Below are positions 855 through 35,228 of a stretch of 64,000 nucleotides of DNA, in pieces. The DNA lies in IMG/VR virus record IMGVR_UViG_3300021400_001756, positions 3,744 to 67,743 of that record. The stretch is one strand, 5' to 3'. The notes under the pieces were generated by a model. It was not told where the DNA came from and made no database searches. It worked only from the letters and a program-made list of their open reading frames with translations. This stretch comes from a virus (lineage: Duplodnaviria; Heunggongvirae; Uroviricota; Caudoviricetes). The position numbers and the translations under genes were made by a program. The first letter of the stretch is position 1. Each line of letters opens with the position of its first letter.

Positions 855-1268
855 CTAACAATGTTTAACTAATATACCATTTTTACCTACATAAAAATTA
901 TCATTATCAGCTATTTCTAAATTATATACATCATATTCCTTATTTATTTTATTTATATTCTCTAAAACTATATCTCCACTGCTAGTCACTAGTTTATTTC
1001 CAGGTCTTAAAAACTCTGTTCTTATTTCTGTTTTACCTACAAAGAATAATTCTTTATATGTAGTTAAAATCATCTCATTTTCAAAGTATAATCTATATAT
1101 AACGGATATATTATGTTTTGATACATTTATAATATCCTTATATTCTGTCTTTTCCTTTTCAAAGTTATATGTTAAAACTTTATCTCCACACTTTAAATCT
1201 TTAATTAGTTTTAATCCACTTTTTGTAACTATAAGTGTATCTCCTGTGAAACAATCTTTATTTATCAT
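855..1268 (-). CDS. free-standing Hint (intein-like) domain protein, 137 aa
   Basis: The N-terminal CFTGDTLI resembles intein block A, with Cys at position 6. The C-terminal VYNLEIADNDNFYVGKNGILVKHC resembles blocks F/G but ends in HC-stop rather than HN. It has its own RBS (aggag), and the upstream and downstream genes are not in frame with it. Confidence 0.55.
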   Translation of the reverse strand: MINKDCFTGDTLIVTKSGLKLIKDLKCGDKVLTYNFEKEKTEYKDIINVSKHNISVIYRLYFENEMILTTYKELFFVGKTEIRTEFLRPGNKLVTSSGDIVLENINKINKEYDVYNLEIADNDNFYVGKNGILVKHC

Positions 1269-1287
1269 GTTTTTACTCCTATAAATA

Positions 1288-2328
1288 TTAAAGTTGTTGA
1301 GCTACATTTTGAACATTCTTCTCTAACTGTTCATATGTAATCTCATCAACAGGTTTGCTAAACATTAACTCTATAAAATCATCTAATGTTGTTTTAAAAA
1401 TAATTCCCTGCAAATGATTACTCTTGCTATTATAAGCATTAGTATACATAGCTTTATAGTCATCTTCACTAATAAATTGCTGTATTTGTTTATAATAATC
1501 ATAATAAAATTTTCTACTTAACTCTTCTATAGCATTTAACGTTTCTTGTGGAACCTTTTTTGCTAAAGCTACATTATAGTATATAAAGCAACTAAATGCA
1601 GTTTCTAAAGCTGATGGTGCTATAGATTTAAGTGGAACGCCTTCTCGTTGTGCAACGTTGTAAGCATTGTGTAGGTTATAAATATACCCTGGTGTACATA
1701 TACCATATTCGTATTCATCCTTACCTCTTCTTGTTATGGACGCTTCATTATAATGCCACTCATAAGTAGGAATACTTAATATTTTACCACCTTCTGGACC
1801 CATATCTTTTTGAGCTATAAGATTGCACATACTATTAAAACCAACATCCTCATTAGCTCTAGTACTTGTAAATCTTATATTGTGTTGTTGTAAAAAACTT
1901 CTTCTATAAATGTGTCCAAATATCCAAACCAAATTAGCATTTACCATACCTTGTTCTTGATTTTTACCTATTTGTACAAAAGGACTTATAACAAACTTAG
2001 TACTAGTGTCTTTTATAGGTTTTGATAACAAACTTAAAGAGCAAGCTTCATAAAATGTATCATCTGCATCGATAAAAGTTATAAAGTCTTGTTTTGTGTT
2101 ATCTATACCATATTGTCTAGCATAGCCTGGACCTCTATTAGTCTCATATCCTATCTCTCTAATGTTTATAAGTGGTTTGAACATATCAACTATATCTTTA
2201 TAGTCTTTTCCGCCATCATTAACAATAGTTACAACTAACTCTTTTCTGTTTAATTGCATTGCTATACTACTAAGTGTTCGTATTATAGTATCTTGGCTGT
2301 TATATGCTGGAATTATTATATCAATCAT
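1288..2328 (-). CDS. family 2 glycosyltransferase
   Basis: The N-terminal IIIPAYN, VNDGGKDY and the DADD (DxD) motif are typical of the GT2 / GT-A fold. Confidence 0.8.
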   Translation of the reverse strand: MIDIIIPAYNSQDTIIRTLSSIAMQLNRKELVVTIVNDGGKDYKDIVDMFKPLINIREIGYETNRGPGYARQYGIDNTKQDFITFIDADDTFYEACSLSLLSKPIKDTSTKFVISPFVQIGKNQEQGMVNANLVWIFGHIYRRSFLQQHNIRFTSTRANEDVGFNSMCNLIAQKDMGPEGGKILSIPTYEWHYNEASITRRGKDEYEYGICTPGYIYNLHNAYNVAQREGVPLKSIAPSALETAFSCFIYYNVALAKKVPQETLNAIEELSRKFYYDYYKQIQQFISEDDYKAMYTNAYNSKSNHLQGIIFKTTLDDFIELMFSKPVDEITYEQLEKNVQNVAQQL

Positions 2329-2426: not shown

Positions 2427-3437
2427 TTAATATGTCCAACCAGCTTGAGTAAGTTCTGTCCATCTATTTTCATATCGTGTATTAGATATATTAGTACTTT
2501 GGAACGGACTAAATGCGTTACTTCCATTGACAAGTGTTTTAGTAGTTACACTAGTACAATTTAAAACAAAGTTTATTATATTTGTTACATCCATATCTGT
2601 TAAATTATTACACTTTTCAAACATACCTCCAATGTTTGTAATTTTATTTGGACTCCAATTGGAAATAGGTACGTTAGTTAAGTTATAACATAAACTAAAC
2701 ATCTTAGCTGTGTTAGTAACATTACTTACGTCCCAAGTTTCACATGAAGATGCATTTGCTAAATTATAACAGTATATACATAAGCTATCTAATCTTGTAG
2801 CACTATTTGTAACATTAAATTGAGGTAAATTACGTAATCCCACACATCCTCTTAATGTTTCTTGAAATGTAGTAGCATTAGCTGTATTTAGTGGAGGTAA
2901 ATCCATTACACTTTGACATCTAGCAAATGTTTGATACATATTCGTTACTTTACTTAAATTTAACTGAGGTACATGAACCAAAGCATAACAATTATAAAAA
3001 CATTGACTCATGTTACTTACATTATAAGTATTTACGTTAGGAAAAAACATTATATCTGGACTTTCGTAATATGCTCTATACATACTTGATTTATTATTAT
3101 TCCAGGTATTGTAAACATTTTTAGAATAGTTAACGTAGTAATCTAACTCTGTTGGAGCTGAGTTGTATCCAATTGCTTGCCAGTCATACATTACAGATTT
3201 GTTATCTACAATATTCTGTAATGTATTTATTTCATTATATAAATTTGTAATAAGTAAATTTTGTTGTTGTACAACAGGTTCTAAGTTACTAGTATCTCCC
3301 ATATTACTTATAATATTAGCATACTGTCTAAAAGGTGTATTTATCTGCACATCCTGCCCTTTATTCACTAAAGATTGTCTAATTAAATCTTTAGTTTCCG
3401 AAAGATATTCTATTTTACTAGCTATTGTATTATACAT
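2427..3437 (-). CDS. tail fiber / receptor-binding protein with BspA-type leucine-rich repeats
   Basis: There are six or more repeats of about 22 aa of the form NVTN(M/T)xxxFxxCxxLxxxP (LRR_5 / BspA-like). It lies in the distal tail module. Confidence 0.6.
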   Translation of the reverse strand: MYNTIASKIEYLSETKDLIRQSLVNKGQDVQINTPFRQYANIISNMGDTSNLEPVVQQQNLLITNLYNEINTLQNIVDNKSVMYDWQAIGYNSAPTELDYYVNYSKNVYNTWNNNKSSMYRAYYESPDIMFFPNVNTYNVSNMSQCFYNCYALVHVPQLNLSKVTNMYQTFARCQSVMDLPPLNTANATTFQETLRGCVGLRNLPQFNVTNSATRLDSLCIYCYNLANASSCETWDVSNVTNTAKMFSLCYNLTNVPISNWSPNKITNIGGMFEKCNNLTDMDVTNIINFVLNCTSVTTKTLVNGSNAFSPFQSTNISNTRYENRWTELTQAGWTY

Positions 3438-3451
3438 TAAAATCCTCCTAA

Positions 3452-3925
3452 TTAAAATTGCATATTATCTCCAACTTCGTATTCTCCGTTAATTAAGTCT
3501 AAAGCCTCTCCTATATCCCCTATCATATTATTAAGAATTCTACCTTGGTTTGCACTAAGAGCTTGAGTTGTAGATGTACTAGTTAAATTATCGACAATAA
3601 AAGTATTTTCTACACCATCATCCAATATTGCGTATAGTACGTCTTCTTCTAGTTCATTGTTATTTTGTAATTCATCATATTCTTGAGCAGTTAAAGATAT
3701 TATACCCTTAACACTTAAATCTTCACTAATAACAACATTACCAGGTAAATCAGAACCTAGTTGCTTCCAACGTGTTCCATCATATTGAAAATATTCTTTA
3801 CTTGTAGAGTTGTAATATAATTGTCCTAAAACACCTGTAGCTGGTTCTGTTGCTTGTACTTGAATTCTTACGTTTTTAATTTGATTATAATCCAAATCTA
3901 TATCCGATTTAAATGGTATCCCCAT
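3452..3925 (-). CDS. tail fiber-associated protein
   Basis: It shares the ALSANQGRILNN module with the partial fiber gene at 1..834 and lies between the baseplate J-like gene and the LRR fiber gene. Confidence 0.5.
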   Translation of the reverse strand: MGIPFKSDIDLDYNQIKNVRIQVQATEPATGVLGQLYYNSTSKEYFQYDGTRWKQLGSDLPGNVVISEDLSVKGIISLTAQEYDELQNNNELEEDVLYAILDDGVENTFIVDNLTSTSTTQALSANQGRILNNMIGDIGEALDLINGEYEVGDNMQF

Positions 3926-3941
3926 AAGTTTGTATTACCTC

Positions 3942-6137
3942 CTAGAATATACTTGTATTTGTATCTTGTATCTTTAATGATGACGCATCAAAATTAAATG
4001 TTTGTGTACTCAAATTTTTATATACAGCTATAGTAACTTTATTTTTTGTGTAGTTAACAATTAAGTCATCAGCTATTGGAGAGTTAAATTCTAGTGTGAC
4101 TTCTCCCGTTGTATAATCAATTTTACCGTTTCTTTGTAGTAAGTTCTCTGTATTATATATAGCTCCATTATTATTATCTCGTAATATATATTGTCCTCCA
4201 TTAACTCTTACCATTAAAGAACCAGGTAATATTGGAGCATTATCTAAAGTAAAATTATACACTAAGTCTTCTGATAGAACAGGGTTTTCTAATCTAGGTA
4301 CTTGTTTTGTATAGTACCCAATTAAATCCTCTTTATTAAGTTCATCTCCCTCTTCTGTTGTATATTTGATTGGGTCTAAATCTACCATTAAAATTCTATT
4401 ATCAACAGCTAATATAGTTTCTATTATTTCTTTATAATTTATAGCGGTATTAAAGTTTACTTTTTCCACAGAATAGTTAAATCTTAAGTCATTATTTATA
4501 TTAACAATCATTGTCTGTAATTCATCTAGTGTTAAAGGTTCTTTTGTATAAAAAGTTCCTGTAATTGTCCAGTAGAATTTTTGTATTGAATGTAAATCTA
4601 CTTGTAAATTTAATGGTAATATTTTGTATTGTTGCATATCTGATACTTCAGATAATATTAAAGATGTATATACTTCATCGTCCATGTCTTCATACTCAGG
4701 TGTTCTTAGTATATAAAGTTTAACAGTAAATGGGGATAATGTTTGTACACTATTTATAACTTGTTGTCCTATGTATCTACCTGCTGCTTCTACATCACCA
4801 TTTATAAAAGCTTCTAACATTTCTGCATCTTCATTTGATACAAAAGAGTCTTGGTTACAATCTGCTAATTGTTTTTGATATGGAGTAAGTGGATATTGAT
4901 TTGGTGCTTGTAAATAATTACGTAATAAATCTAAATCCTGCTCATTAATCTCACCATCCATATTTATATCTCCTACATAATGAGATATAGCAGTACCTGG
5001 GTCATTTGTTAAATCTGTAGCTCTAACATTAGCTACACCTGGTTCACGTAAACATGCTCTTTCAAAGTCTGCTAAAGTAATAAGTGTATCCAACGTATTG
5101 ATGTATTTAACAGATTCTTTTCTTGCTTCATCTGGAGTTTCTGGATTATATCCCCAACAACTATCATCATTAGTAAAATTTATAAATCCAGCAACATTAT
5201 ACATAGTAGTATTTGAACTTGTCTGTACTTTACTCCACACATTTCCAGTTAGTTTGGTAAGAGTGTTAGAAAATATTTGACCATTCTCACCGGCACTAAG
5301 TATATAGAAAATTTTAAACCTAGATACATTGTAGTTATCCCAATAATCTATTAACTCTAAATAAGGTCTATCATTAACATCTACGTCAAATTGGAAAAAT
5401 CTACCAACATCTGTAGTTAAATAAATATTTTCTTTTAATGTCCACTCGTTACCTGTATCATCAATCATTATAATATGGTCTTGGTCTATATTTGAATCCT
5501 TTAAATATATTCTATTATTTGTTATATCATCTACTGTATAATTATAACCATAAATTGTATGCCAAGCTTTACCTTCTTGAGCATAAGGCGAACTAGAACT
5601 TCTAACGGGAGTTACAGGTATACCTTGTATTAACTTGATTTTTGTCTCTTCACCATTATTAGTCATATTAGAAGGTAAATCGTAATAGTCAAATGTTGTA
5701 TATGTTATTTGACCATTGCTTGTAGTAAAGGTACAAAATCTAGGAATAGTTGCCATGTTAGAATATGTATTTATAACATTACAATAAAGTTCAGCTGACC
5801 TAAACCATTTCATTTTATAACCAATTAACTTATATATACTTGCAGCATTTTTTCGTAGAGTTACAGTACTAGGGTAAATCTCTAAAGATTCCATATCTTG
5901 TTGATAGTTTAACATATCACCCAATATTGCTATTAGTCTTACTAGAACCAATCCTGGGTCATTAGTATCCGTACTATTCCATTTTTGAGTAATAGTAGGA
6001 ATACTAGATATTAAATCATCCAATATTGTAGTGTAGTCTCTACTAGTGTAATCTATACGTTTAGCACTGTAATCTTCTTTTAAAACTTGATTTAATTGCG
6101 CCATTTGTAATACTATCATCCTTTCGTGTTTAATCAC
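3942..6137 (-). CDS. baseplate J (gp6)-like protein carrying an internal dockerin module
   Basis: It is 731 aa and sits immediately downstream of the gp25-like gene, which is the P2 W-J / T4 25-6 order. It contains the tandem calcium-binding repeats DINMDGEINEQDLDLLRNYL and DCNQDSFVSNEDAEMLEAFI, which make up a type I dockerin. The track start is GTG; an internal ATG start is possible. Confidence 0.6.
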   Translation of the reverse strand: MIKHERMIVLQMAQLNQVLKEDYSAKRIDYTSRDYTTILDDLISSIPTITQKWNSTDTNDPGLVLVRLIAILGDMLNYQQDMESLEIYPSTVTLRKNAASIYKLIGYKMKWFRSAELYCNVINTYSNMATIPRFCTFTTSNGQITYTTFDYYDLPSNMTNNGEETKIKLIQGIPVTPVRSSSSPYAQEGKAWHTIYGYNYTVDDITNNRIYLKDSNIDQDHIIMIDDTGNEWTLKENIYLTTDVGRFFQFDVDVNDRPYLELIDYWDNYNVSRFKIFYILSAGENGQIFSNTLTKLTGNVWSKVQTSSNTTMYNVAGFINFTNDDSCWGYNPETPDEARKESVKYINTLDTLITLADFERACLREPGVANVRATDLTNDPGTAISHYVGDINMDGEINEQDLDLLRNYLQAPNQYPLTPYQKQLADCNQDSFVSNEDAEMLEAFINGDVEAAGRYIGQQVINSVQTLSPFTVKLYILRTPEYEDMDDEVYTSLILSEVSDMQQYKILPLNLQVDLHSIQKFYWTITGTFYTKEPLTLDELQTMIVNINNDLRFNYSVEKVNFNTAINYKEIIETILAVDNRILMVDLDPIKYTTEEGDELNKEDLIGYYTKQVPRLENPVLSEDLVYNFTLDNAPILPGSLMVRVNGGQYILRDNNNGAIYNTENLLQRNGKIDYTTGEVTLEFNSPIADDLIVNYTKNKVTIAVYKNLSTQTFNFDASSLKIQDTNTSIF

Positions 6138-32983: not shown

Positions 32984-33059
<76 letters not shown>

Positions 33060-33069
33060 GTCATTTAAA

Positions 33070-33155
33070 TGGTGGGCAGTTCTAGATTCGAACTAGAGAA
33101 CTCAAATGAGACCAGATTTACAGTCTGGCGGTTTTAACCACTCACCCAACTGCCC
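33070..33155 (-). tRNA. tRNA-Tyr (anticodon GTA), class II long variable arm
   Basis: Acceptor gggcagt/actgccc, anticodon loop ctgtaaa, a long variable arm and an encoded CCA. Confidence 0.65.
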
Positions 33156-33164
33156 AAAAACAAA

Positions 33165-33240
<76 letters not shown>

Positions 33241-33954
33241 ATATAAACTGTGTTAACTTTTTGACGTCCAAAAGTTAATATACATACCCACAGTTAAGTA
33301 TTGGGTTATAGAGGACTAACCCTCAATCCTGTAACATTTTAAAACCAGGTTCACTGGAAGTTGTACACACTTAGAATCACTTACTATCGGAAAGTAACTC
33401 TCAGAAACCGTTATTCATCTTGAATAATAGTCAACTTACAATTATATTCTATGATTTTTCGTTTGTAGTAACGAAGTGTATCTTTAGCACATAGTTACCA
33501 TAGACTACACCAAATCTATGCCCTCCTCGGTCAGGCGCCGTCAATATACTTTAAGTGTTTCATATTGATGAAGTACGGTTATTTACGTGGTTCCCACGAG
33601 AGCTTTATATTCTTTATAAAGTTGAACGGCTTCGATGCTCTGCTCCTAACAATCTTATCTATAATATAATTATAAAATTACATGTTGTACTACATATAAA
33701 TACTACATTTCTTTCTAAACATATATTATAGATTGGAGTAATAGTTTTTGAAATGAACTATTAAAGAAACATTTCTTATTTCAATAAGAGGTTATTCTGT
33801 CTCTCCAGAATGTCACGTTGCTACTTAATACACTGCTTACTCACCACAACGTTTATACCGAGCACTCTTGCCGTGTGTACTTGACTCTTGGACTTTATCC
33901 TACTTTACCAAGAATAGACTATACGGAGTGTTACTGTATAGGTAGGGCCTAAAG

Positions 33955-34029
33955 TGGTGACGCTACTGTGAGTTGAACACAGCACTTTGGAATGAAAATC
34001 CAATGGCTTAACCGACTGCCCCTAGCGCC
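33955..34029 (-). tRNA. tRNA-Glu (anticodon TTC)
   Basis: Acceptor ggcgcta/tagcgtc and anticodon loop ttttcat. Position 8 is G, the D-stem is weak, and the CCA is encoded. Confidence 0.55.
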
Positions 34030-34047
34030 ATATATTAAATTAAAATA

Positions 34048-34123
34048 TGGTCCGGGTAGCAGGATTCGAACCTGCGACCCCATGGTCCCAAACCACGTGC
34101 GCTACCAACTGCGCTACACCCGG
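34048..34123 (-). tRNA. tRNA-Pro (anticodon TGG)
   Basis: cgggtgtagcgcagttggtagcgc ... anticodon loop tttggga, with an encoded CCA. Confidence 0.7.
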
Positions 34124-34453
34124 ATATAAGAGATATATGTGTCCTCCCTGATACATTTAATTAGCCTTCGGCCAAGTCAATTAAAAACATATCCAGCATA
34201 CATCTCTCTTAGTAAGGAACTGTTTTACTATAAACTATATGTATTTTAATCCTCGCAAAACAAAAATACACAAATAATAAAACAACATGCACATATTAGT
34301 GGAGGTATTTTCTTGTACGTGAAAATACTATAAATATCTAAAGAGTTGAACGAACCTCTCCAAACTGTTAGCCACTCCTCTAACCAAAATAACAAATAAA
34401 ACTCTTATTAGTTAAGAAAATGAACAACTATGGATAAAAACTTAACTAATAAG

Positions 34454-34529
34454 TGGGTGCAGGAATAGGATTCGAACCTATGACCTTCAGGTTATGGGCC
34501 TGACGAGATAACCACTTCTCTACCCTGCA
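34454..34529 (-). tRNA. tRNA with CAT anticodon (Met, or Ile2 if lysidinylated)
   Basis: Anticodon loop cccataa and T-loop ttcgaat, with an encoded CCA. The anticodon stem lacks the initiator-type three G:C pairs. Confidence 0.65.
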
Positions 34530-34777
34530 GTATATTTTTTATATATTTTACAGTATTATAACCTTATACTTAATACTGTATTACTATAATAACATCTTAA
34601 CCTTATTATAAAATTAGAGATATTATTAAACCAATTTAATAATAAGTACAAAAATACAAAATTTCTATCATAAAAACATTTTTAATTTTTTATAAATGTT
34701 ATATTATAATAACTAGTTTTTAACTAAATAATATAATTAAAATGAAGCAATTAAACTTATATTATTAAGTTAGGTAT

Positions 34778-34851
34778 GGTTGGACGAGTTAGATTCGAAC
34801 TAACGCATGCATGAGTCAAAGTCATGTGCCTTACCACTTGGCTACCGTCCA
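34778..34851 (-). tRNA. tRNA-Gln (anticodon TTG)
   Basis: tggacggtagccaagtggtaaggc ... anticodon loop ctttgac, with an encoded CCA. Confidence 0.7.
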
Positions 34852-34990
34852 ATGTATAACTTCCATTTTTATTTTTACGAAGTGTTGAAAGTATAGCTAT
34901 CACTTTTACTATAAATTGCTTTGACCTCTATATTGTGATAAGCAATAAAACCAATTAGAGTAGTAAAGATGTTATAGTCATCTCTGCTTA

Positions 34991-35057
34991 TCTTGTGTAG
35001 GAATTGAACCCACATAACTGTCGTCACAGTTGTTCTACCATTAAACTAACAAGATAT
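34991..35057 (-). tRNA. tRNA-like element / probable tRNA pseudogene with a truncated anticodon arm
   Basis: It has a perfect 7-bp acceptor stem (atcttgt/acaagat), a canonical D-arm (tagtttaatggtagaac) and T-arm (gtgggttcaattcctac). The anticodon region is only a 6-bp stem with a GACG tetraloop, the total is about 67 nt, and there is no CCA. Confidence 0.35.
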
Positions 35058-35136
35058 AAATCTTATAAAATTGTGTAAGGTAGGTTAGGGTTCCTACCTT
35101 ACGGACGTTAATAATTTTGATAGCACTAACACTATC

Positions 35137-35228
35137 TGGCGTGGTAAGAAGGATTCGAACCTTCGGAAACTTTATAAGCTTCGCAACCTTAGCAGGGTTG
35201 TGGTTTAAGCCAACTCACCCATTACCAC
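35137..35228 (-). tRNA. tRNA-Ser (anticodon GCT), class II
   Basis: Acceptor gtggtaa/ttaccac, anticodon loop ctgctaa, a long variable arm and an encoded CCA. Confidence 0.7.

Follow-up and report, generated by a model that had tools for sequence, protein, structure and literature searches.

A Free-Standing Hint-Domain Gene in the Tail-Fiber Block of an Uncultured Phage: Probably a Fiber Helper Protein and Not an Intein

INTRODUCTION

Hint domains are known as single-turnover devices that act in cis, their only task being to cut or splice the very protein in which they reside, which raises the question of what such a domain could do when it is encoded as a gene of its own. This question is posed by a 64,000-nucleotide stretch of a tailed phage (Caudoviricetes; IMG/VR record IMGVR_UViG_3300021400_001756, positions 3,744 to 67,743), referred to as the window in the following. 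Its G+C content is 28%, and its minus strand carries almost all genes, among them an open reading frame (ORF) of 137 amino acids (aa) at 855–1268 and a second one of 346 aa at 1288–2328. An earlier note on this DNA had placed both ORFs correctly and had described the first as a free-standing Hint domain inserted, together with the GT2 glycosyltransferase encoded by the second, between tail-fiber genes; it had further proposed that the Hint ORF is essentially a mini-intein, possibly a decayed one that was excised from a fiber gene. We have found that the free-standing Hint domain and its setting inside a fiber gene cluster are real, and that the Hint protein is probably a fiber helper protein and not an intein. 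A separate Hint gene that is under selection although most of its chemistry is gone implies a second function of the domain, and a genomic series from fused to split genes ties this second function to tail fibers. This is of relevance for annotating and engineering the receptor-binding proteins of uncultured large phages, apparently from gut or rumen samples.

A COMPLETE HINT FOLD IN AN INDEPENDENT CISTRON

The ORF at 855–1268 is a complete Hint fold of the bacterial-intein-like (BIL)/PT-HINT branch. PT-HINT (PF07591) is the sole Pfam model above threshold (E-value 8.4e-14, 52.4 bits against a cut-off of 27.7, profile positions 1–135 of 137), and Hint_2, Intein_splicing, and Hint remain below their cut-offs. 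PF01079 (Hedgehog/Hog) reaches 24.3 against a cut-off of 29.7, and the intein models stay below theirs as well. When a profile of the four-member family was compared with the PDB, the BIL4 domain of Clostridium thermocellum (2LWY) was found at 1.1e-15 with 30% identity. The AlphaFold2 model, for which 36 aligned Hint domains served as input, has a mean predicted local distance difference test score (pLDDT) of 95.5, and Foldseek superimposes it on 2LWY with a TM-score of 0.90 and a root-mean-square deviation of 1.4 Å. The five best PDB matches are all BIL domains, followed by mini-inteins and the Hedgehog Hh-C domain, and 69 PDB Hint structures match the predicted fold at E ≤ 1e-3. In sequence and in fold, BIL and PT-HINT domains are accordingly the closest relations, rather than inteins or Hedgehog.

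The likeness to the BIL domain 2LWY comprises the length of ~135 aa, Cys1, and the framework of blocks A, B, F, and G. BIL domains, however, reside inside larger variable bacterial proteins, retain TxxH and usually His-Asn, and cleave or splice, whereas the window Hint is free, phage-encoded, has a Glu in block B, and lacks the terminal Asn. Likewise, many of the best database matches are canonical PT-HINTs of polymorphic toxins (Rhs/YD), with which the window Hint shares the Pfam model, but these end in VHN and are followed by a toxin domain of usually ~100–150 aa; the canonical examples in the loci L030, L066, and L001 show such an Rhs or toxin context. Nothing follows the window Hint, its HN is missing, and it stands among tail-fiber genes instead of toxin and immunity genes, so that it lacks the setting typical of the branch, a position within a larger protein (secreted, surface, or toxin) and ahead of a variable C-terminal domain. 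From the set of autocleavage residues of the branch (Cys1, TxxH, and terminal Asn), Cys1 and the Thr alone have been kept. Two canonical PT-HINT proteins have also been seen in Ruminococcus phage NatCom_3870 (L001, 2721–4415 and 4983–5780), where the Hint ends in VHN and is followed by C-terminal domains of ~115–125 aa; one of them has six residues before Cys1 and resembles a phage-borne orphan polymorphic-toxin cassette.

That the window Hint is free-standing, with Cys1, a ribosome-binding site (RBS) of its own, and no extein, is borne out by the ORF, the PT-HINT match, and the fold. The strings CFTGDTLI and VYNLEIADNDNFYVGKNGILVKHC are both present in the 137-aa ORF. About five flanking residues had been claimed for either side; this is correct for the N-terminal side, where only MINKD precedes Cys1 (Cys6, codon at 1251–1253), and incorrect for the C-terminal side, where the single residue C137 follows the fold. 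An AGGAG box at 1276–1280, as read from the sequence, lies in the 19-nt gap after the glycosyltransferase stop and 7 nt before the ATG, and an equivalent RBS is found in L003, L004, and L005. The gene ends with a TAG stop at 857–855, and the following fiber gene starts at 834 in another frame, with its own AAGGAG box. Read-through or recoding that would fuse the Hint to this fiber has been considered and rejected, as only nine residues would be added past the TAG and the fiber ATG lies in another frame. None of the eight tRNAs in the window is a suppressor, TAG ends 7 of the 45 long ORFs, and the long ORFs are intact under code 11. The own RBS, the TAG stop, the different frame of the next gene, and the lack of any useful read-through together identify the Hint ORF as an independent cistron.

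CATALYTIC RESIDUES

In order to compare the window protein with inteins, the catalytic positions have been mapped on the alignment with 2LWY and on 182 aligned Hint domains. The block A nucleophile Cys1 (Cys6) and the block B Thr (Thr70) are kept in all homologs, and Cys1 is also present in 27/27 of the fiber-terminal Hints described below. The block B His of TxxH, on the other hand, is replaced by Glu73 (T70-Y-K-E73, 1050–1061), as the 2LWY alignment pairs TTFDH with TTYKE, and the same position is Glu in the homologs P0001 and P0002 and Gln in P0003. Asp123 stands in place of the block F His (Lys in P0003), Lys135-His136 in place of the block G His-Asn (Leu-Glu in P0003), and Cys137 at the place of the +1 Cys, Ser, or Thr (His in P0003), the three C-terminal codons being located at 858–866. 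Accordingly, P0003, the homolog with 54% identity, ends in L-E-H, so that the final His-Cys pair is not conserved and the Asn is absent there too.

Judged by these residues, the window Hint protein is not a mini-intein. As the terminal Asn is absent, Asn cyclization is impossible, and the 'VKH-C' that had been taken for a splice junction is none; without the block B His, the N-terminal scissile bond lacks its usual activation; and with five residues before Cys1 and one after the fold, there is nothing to splice. Neither the window ORF nor its three homologs lie in frame within a host protein with N- and C-exteins, and from the intein hallmarks the position-1 nucleophile (Cys6) is present, whereas the His of TxxH and the terminal Asn with its +1 residue are not. 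Class 1 mini-inteins (gp41-1, Npu/Ssp DnaB) thus share with the window Hint the fold, the position-1 Cys, and a similar length, and differ by their host protein, block B His, block F His, and terminal Asn, by the +1 residue, which is not conserved in the window family, and by the intein models, whose scores for the window Hint are below their cut-offs. A second Hint fragment or intein half, as expected for a split intein or for a donor intein in a replication gene, has been sought in the 64-kb window and none has been found; since the whole fold is contained in one ORF, a split intein is not present.

The residues that have been retained leave room for the alternative that the protein is still catalytic. 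Cys6, aided by Thr70, Glu73, and/or His52, would then form a thioester at Asp5-Cys6 and either shed MINKD, exposing an N-terminal Cys, or process or ligate a fiber in trans. This would be in line with the invariance of Cys6 (8/8 sequences in the subclade alignment) and Thr70 in the subclade described below. His52 (codon at 1113–1115) is a clade-specific conserved residue, invariant in 27/27 Hints that terminate fiber proteins (H380 of A4) and in the four window-type proteins, Tyr in P0009, and variable in ordinary PT-HINTs. In the hhalign alignment to Drosophila Hh-C, it lies a single residue away from Asp46, the general base, and adjoins a gap. Moreover, the window type and P0009 have similar leaders (M-x-N-x-[DN]), some inteins such as Tko CDC21-1 function with no His in block B, and Hedgehog stays active with D46H, the structure of which (6TYY) is among the Foldseek matches. 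Yet, substitutions are found at four of the six canonical catalytic positions, three of which differ between close homologs (E/Q, D/K, KH/LE). A 5-residue 'extein' has no obvious use, and we know of no Hint domain that acts in trans. The invariance of a single Cys also carries little weight with 4–9 sequences, 21 of 137 columns being invariant in A3. Persisting catalysis has therefore to be regarded as distinctly unlikely.

HOMOLOGS AND SELECTION

In a search of 5.8 billion proteins, three homologs of the window Hint have been detected at 95, 76, and 54% identity, each exactly 137 aa long and from three further assemblies. The gene order is glycosyltransferase, Hint, and fiber in L003, glycosyltransferase and Hint in L004, and Hint followed by an 'MSIR' fiber start in L005; start, RBS, and TAG stop are conserved in all four assemblies. 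The ratio of nonsynonymous to synonymous substitution rates (dN/dS, Nei-Gojobori) is 0.21–0.26, and not a single indel has accumulated across 47% amino-acid divergence. The window Hint gene is thus not decaying, contrary to what had been suggested, and purifying selection keeps a protein whose length of 137 aa is fixed across the four assemblies. In comparison, the glycosyltransferase (0.07) and the baseplate protein of the block (0.11) are held more tightly, and the DUF285 protein is similar with 0.24 against its L003 ortholog. In terms of identity to L003, the glycosyltransferase reaches 92%, a 157-aa fiber 86%, the baseplate protein 84%, and the Hint 53% (proportion of synonymous differences, pS, 0.63), which makes it the fastest-evolving gene of the fiber block.

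These data bear directly on the idea of a non-functional remnant, be it the fragment of an intein or BIL domain in decay or a selfish element that a deletion left behind and that is merely still open. The loss of several catalytic residues and the rarity of the family, with four clusters plus P0009 among 1.8–5.8 billion proteins, would agree with such a remnant. It is hardly credible, however, given the dN/dS of 0.21–0.26, the lack of any indel or frameshift across 47% divergence, the conservation of start, RBS, and stop in four independent assemblies, and a predicted fold that is complete and confident, with no homing endonuclease. A related proposal assigns the function to the DNA: the Hint sequence would serve mainly as a homology block for swaps of fiber modules, with the protein being incidental, in analogy to orphan PT-HINT cassettes in the loci of polymorphic toxins. 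Fiber modules around the Hint are clearly shuffled between relatives, and Ruminococcus phages possess canonical PT-HINT cassettes with almost no N-extein. As conservation within the block is lowest for the Hint, in both DNA and protein (pS 0.63, 53% identity), it would nevertheless make a poor homology handle; selection moreover acts on the protein, and nothing is fused downstream that could be swapped, all of which renders this proposal most improbable.

Close relatives in cultured phages (INPHARED) have been sought and none has been found, the matches being only true inteins (ribonucleotide reductase, helicase, and terminase) and the canonical PT-HINT-toxin proteins of Ruminococcus phages. 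Scans of IMG/VR, JGI metagenomes, and GTDB genomes with the family alignments have yielded no further free-standing or 'TYDE'-type member (see below); they returned Rhs/PT-HINT toxins, e.g., of Bovifimicola, and inteins only. Hint-only proteins of 143–153 aa with 14–23% identity do occur in other phages in BFVD, namely A0A1S5RCV4 (Lactobacillus phage P1, 143 aa), A0A8S5P792, A0A8S5VRF6, and A0A1C3NFC5, and free-standing Hint genes are thus rare but not unique.

HINT DOMAINS AT THE C-TERMINUS OF TAIL FIBERS

The closest relatives with a different architecture have come from a HMMER scan of 1.84 billion cluster representatives, which gave 8,839 Hint matches, of which the best 150 have been analyzed. 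The Hint domains in these 150 are mostly canonical PT-HINTs embedded in large proteins, with a VHN end and more sequence behind it. A distinct set, however, carries the Hint at the protein end according to the pattern '…GGGG[LVE]A|CFTxDT … TxxH … ILVY|NE[DE]SVL', with 4–19 residues following the domain (47 in one member). PT-HINT was passed by 27/27 of these proteins and phrog_21587, an uncharacterized viral family with the Hint at its end, was matched by 25/27, while their N-terminal parts match Collar, Gp10_C, Mtd_N, and tail-fiber, tail-collar, and virion-structural PHROGs. In the best 150 matches alone, fiber proteins that end in an apparently active Hint make up at least 27 clusters (at 50% identity). 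By their residues, the Hints of this sizeable set, which includes P0021, P0025, P0030, P0045, P0050, P0059, P0093, and others, look like a self-cleaving C-terminal module similar to S74. If these fiber-terminal Hints do cleave themselves, they would represent a second, independent solution to fiber self-processing alongside S74. No description of fiber C-terminal Hints or of free-standing Hint genes in fiber modules has been found in the literature searched, the coverage of which is incomplete, so that this is absence of evidence only.

A smaller group deviates from this pattern by 'TY[DN]E' in place of TxxH and by the lack of the Gly-rich linker. It consists of P0012, P0013, P0016, and P0018, which are fused to fibers, and of P0009 from L022, which is free-standing with 151 aa. 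A neighbor-joining tree of 182 Hint domains joins these five as sister group to the four window-type proteins in 104/200 bootstraps, and the resulting nine nest in a clade of 32 members, the other 23 of which all have a C-terminal Hint, Cys1, and the block B His (23/23); a Gly-rich linker before Cys1 is present in ~20/23 of the clade members outside the 'TYDE' subgroup. Throughout this subclade of nine, Cys6 and Thr70 do not vary, and His52 is shared by eight. Both the placement in the tree and His52 assign the window Hint to the fiber-terminal clade, although it is, like P0009, a separate ORF and not fused to the extreme C-terminus of a fiber. The historical link to fiber genes that had been suspected is thus supported, since the nearest relatives are fiber C-terminal Hints. 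The manner of that link is a different one, as the relatives carry the domain as a C-terminal appendage and not as an internal intein from which it could have been excised. It had also been stated that the ORF might prove to be an in-frame part of a longer gene in relatives; this applies to distant relatives only (34–40% identity), and the close ones are all free-standing.

Several unusual architectures have been noticed among the Hint matches. In P0004 (194 aa), a degenerate Hint follows an N-terminus that reads like a leader peptide with a Gly-Gly end; P0006 (1435 aa) is a subtilase with four tandem canonical Hints, and the two giants P0007 and P0008 (about 3400 aa) contain two or three tandem Hints.

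FUSED AND SPLIT GENES IN ONE GENOMIC SLOT

The genomic positions of these proteins form a series. In L024, a baseplate-J/dockerin protein is followed by a 462-aa fiber-Hint fusion and by a gene starting with MSVRTVINGTEY…. In L022, a 161-kb contig, the dockerin baseplate protein is followed by a 1150-aa 'MAIPF' fiber with its stop, 55 nt with an RBS, the free 151-aa Hint P0009, and a fiber starting with MSVRVIKNGQEF…. In the window and in L003, the order is dockerin baseplate protein, 157-aa 'MGIPF' fiber, DUF285 protein, GT2 glycosyltransferase, free 137-aa Hint, and a fiber starting with MSLRIIKQGTEY…. The slot of the Hint is constant, directly upstream of an 'MSxR' fiber gene, irrespective of whether the domain is fused (L024) or free (L022 and window), and the 'MAIPF…' N-terminus of P0012, P0013, and P0016 is homologous to the 157-aa fiber of the window (tblastn matches at 3925–3752). 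The fiber C-terminal clade therefore resembles the window Hint by its nearest position in the tree, by His52, and by the slot upstream of the 'MSxR' fiber, and differs in that its Hint is fused to a fiber, whereas the window Hint is separate and its chemistry degenerate.

Gene content and tree position point to an origin of the window Hint gene by fission of a fiber-Hint fusion. With the fused forms as outgroup, fission is the parsimonious direction and would have occurred at least twice, in the window lineage and in the lineage of P0009.

Two further observations concern these loci. TAG, a minority stop in this genome, ends all four window-type Hint genes (window 855–857, L003 10412–10414, L004, and L005) as well as the 1150-aa fiber that precedes the free Hint of L022 (7943–7945), and no read-through product joins these genes to the next. 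Furthermore, a short Phage_fiber_rpt adaptor and, behind it, a BspA-like leucine-rich repeat (LRR) protein (DUF285 or LRR_5) recur as a pair (window 2427–3437/3452–3925; L022 8460–10744), which is located upstream of the Hint in the window and downstream in L022 and hence shows module shuffling within the fiber block.

PROPOSED FUNCTION

Taking these results together, we tentatively favor a reading in which the fission-derived, chemistry-poor Hint acts in trans as a non-covalent fiber accessory that aids folding or trimerization, with the glycosyltransferase not being its partner; it appears possible rather than probable as a whole. The fused ancestors, equipped with Cys1, TxxH, and often the 'GGGGxA|CFT' linker, would probably cut themselves off the finished fiber by an N-S acyl shift and subsequent hydrolysis of the thioester, to give the finished fiber and, as a free protein of ~140 aa, the Hint. 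It is this 'post-cleavage' Hint that the window phage would make directly as a separate polypeptide, and with no cleavage needed, most of the catalytic chemistry would have decayed. The Hint would then attach non-covalently to the distal part of a fiber or receptor-binding protein and help it to fold or trimerize, in a manner similar to Tfa or gp38. As the domain is still under purifying selection, unlike a mere by-product, it must have a role beyond its own removal. Its rank as the fastest-diverging gene in the block fits fiber-linked evolution, which is typical of proteins that touch variable receptor-binding regions.

Separately encoded tail-fiber chaperones are known from T4 (gp38/gp57A) and lambda (Tfa), and the likeness to these and to S74 is one of functional analogy alone, in that a self-removing C-terminal module of the fiber is replaced elsewhere by a separate helper beside the fiber genes. 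The peptidase S74 domain is a self-cleaving intramolecular chaperone of tail fibers and spikes (PMC7824862). It has no relation to Hint in sequence or fold and employs a Ser-Lys dyad in contrast to the Cys thioester of Hint.

Several points weigh against a fiber accessory of this kind. The sister-group relation has a bootstrap of 52% only, the preference for fission over fusion derives from parsimony, the self-cleavage of the fused clade is a prediction, and the chaperone role is suggested by analogy and gene position. None of the known families of fiber chaperones in Pfam, PHROG, and NCBIfam matches the Hint protein, which resembles them in neither sequence nor fold. Known chaperone genes usually follow the gene of their client, and the gene directly upstream of the Hint is the glycosyltransferase. 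The invariance of Cys1 and Thr70 in 9/9 and of His52 in 8/9 subclade members would not be expected if all chemistry were dispensable. Finally, the block B His is already a Glu in the fused P0012, P0013, P0016, and P0018, so that these fusions may not cleave, which speaks for a lasting structural or tip function rather than a chaperone.

This last point leads to the main rival, namely that the Hint is a permanent part of the virion: a small distal subunit or adhesin that is kept on the fiber tip like the gp38 of T2-type phages, present as an uncleaved knob in the 'TYDE' fusions and as a separate subunit in the window phage. Since neither the Gly-rich linker nor the block B His is present in the closest fused members P0012, P0013, P0016, and P0018, their Hint probably stays attached; the gene is the fastest-diverging one (53% identity), its dN/dS of 0.26 resembles the 0.24 of the DUF285 receptor-binding candidate, and it is co-oriented and closely spaced with structural genes. 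To our knowledge, however, Hint folds have no receptor-binding features, and the larger sister clade has kept its cleavage residues, suggesting that the domain is normally removed. We consider a tip subunit unlikely, albeit the first alternative to the accessory or chaperone role.

A reactive variant of the fused module can also be conceived by comparison with the Hedgehog C-terminal autoprocessing domain (1AT0). The latter shares the Hint fold, a 'G…|CF' junction with the fused fiber clade, and the position of the conserved His within one residue of Asp46. The window Hint differs in lacking the sterol-recognition region, the signaling domain, and the block B His, and with 137 aa, no cargo at the G|CF junction, and no extra C-terminal region it is not a Hedgehog/Hog protein. 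In such a scheme, the Cys1 thioester that the fused clade forms at the new C-terminus of the fiber would be resolved, Hedgehog-like, by a specific nucleophile activated by His52, whereby the fiber would be coupled covalently to another virion protein or to a glycan, and the window Hint would act in trans on a fiber through Cys6 and His52. Although very unlikely in our estimation, this would, if true, constitute the first trans-working Hint domain, and phage fibers would be built or armed in a way that is new.

NEIGHBORING GENES

The fiber accessory that we favor involves no role for the adjacent gene at 1288–2328 (minus strand). Its assignment as a GT2-family (GT-A) glycosyltransferase of 346 aa holds, as PF00535 is matched at 1.4e-19 (71.1 bits against a cut-off of 23.3) and the DxD motif is present as D87-A88-D89. 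The best solved relatives, GalT1 5HEA, PglI, and TarS, align only with the N-terminal ~120 aa, and no NCBIfam equivalog cut-off is reached. The gene is not an insertion, as had been assumed, but a near-universal conserved gene of a clade of ~200-kb uncultured phages. It is the most conserved one in the block (92% identity to L003, dN/dS 0.07, against 53–86% identity for its neighbors), and its homologs comprise at least 120 clusters at 75–99% identity, on contigs of up to ~230 kb. In the 50,697 deposited phage genomes of INPHARED, it has no match by tblastn at 1e-5. In L025–L027, it is followed at a distance of a few kb by a T4-type portal gene, and in L028 the gene after it has an N-terminus like that of the DUF285 receptor-binding candidate of the window. 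In both the window and L028, the GT2 gene is set among variable genes for fibers and receptor-binding proteins. A functional partnership with the Hint has been considered and ruled out, as L025–L028 carry the glycosyltransferase without any Hint and L022 carries the Hint without an adjacent glycosyltransferase; the two are independent genes. Glycosylation of the fibers by this enzyme is a reasonable, putative function.

The remaining neighbors, all on the minus strand, are fiber and baseplate genes, with matches to Phage_fiber_rpt, DUF285/LRR, and a baseplate-J-like protein. Downstream of the Hint, the 5' part (278 codons) of a tail-fiber gene, 'MSLRIIKQG…', occupies 1–834 and is cut by the edge of the window. 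It is 70% identical to the 450-aa Phage_fiber_rpt protein behind the Hint of L003, and an N-terminus of this type also follows the Hint in L005, L022, and L024. Upstream of the GT2 gene, a DUF285 (BspA-like leucine-rich repeat) protein at 2427–3437 is a candidate receptor-binding protein (PF03382 at 4.7e-17; 64% identity and dN/dS 0.24 to its L003 ortholog). The 157-aa fiber protein with the N-terminus 'MGIPF…' follows at 3452–3925 (Phage_fiber_rpt at 8.4e-13; phrog_8309), and the baseplate-J-like protein at 3942–6137 (TIGR02243 baseplate assembly protein at 5.7e-12; Dockerin_1 at 9.9e-10). The latter marks the start of the fiber block in all related loci, with the same position in L003, L022, and L025. 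Its dockerin type I domain at aa 389–446, behind the TIGR02243 N-terminus, is found again in the L003, L022, and L025/L026 orthologs; on a phage baseplate, such a domain could bind cohesins or cellulosome scaffoldins of the host as receptor. Further away, at 32984–35228 on the minus strand, the eight tRNA genes of the window are clustered (Thr, Tyr, Asn, Glu, Pro, Met, Gln, and Ser).

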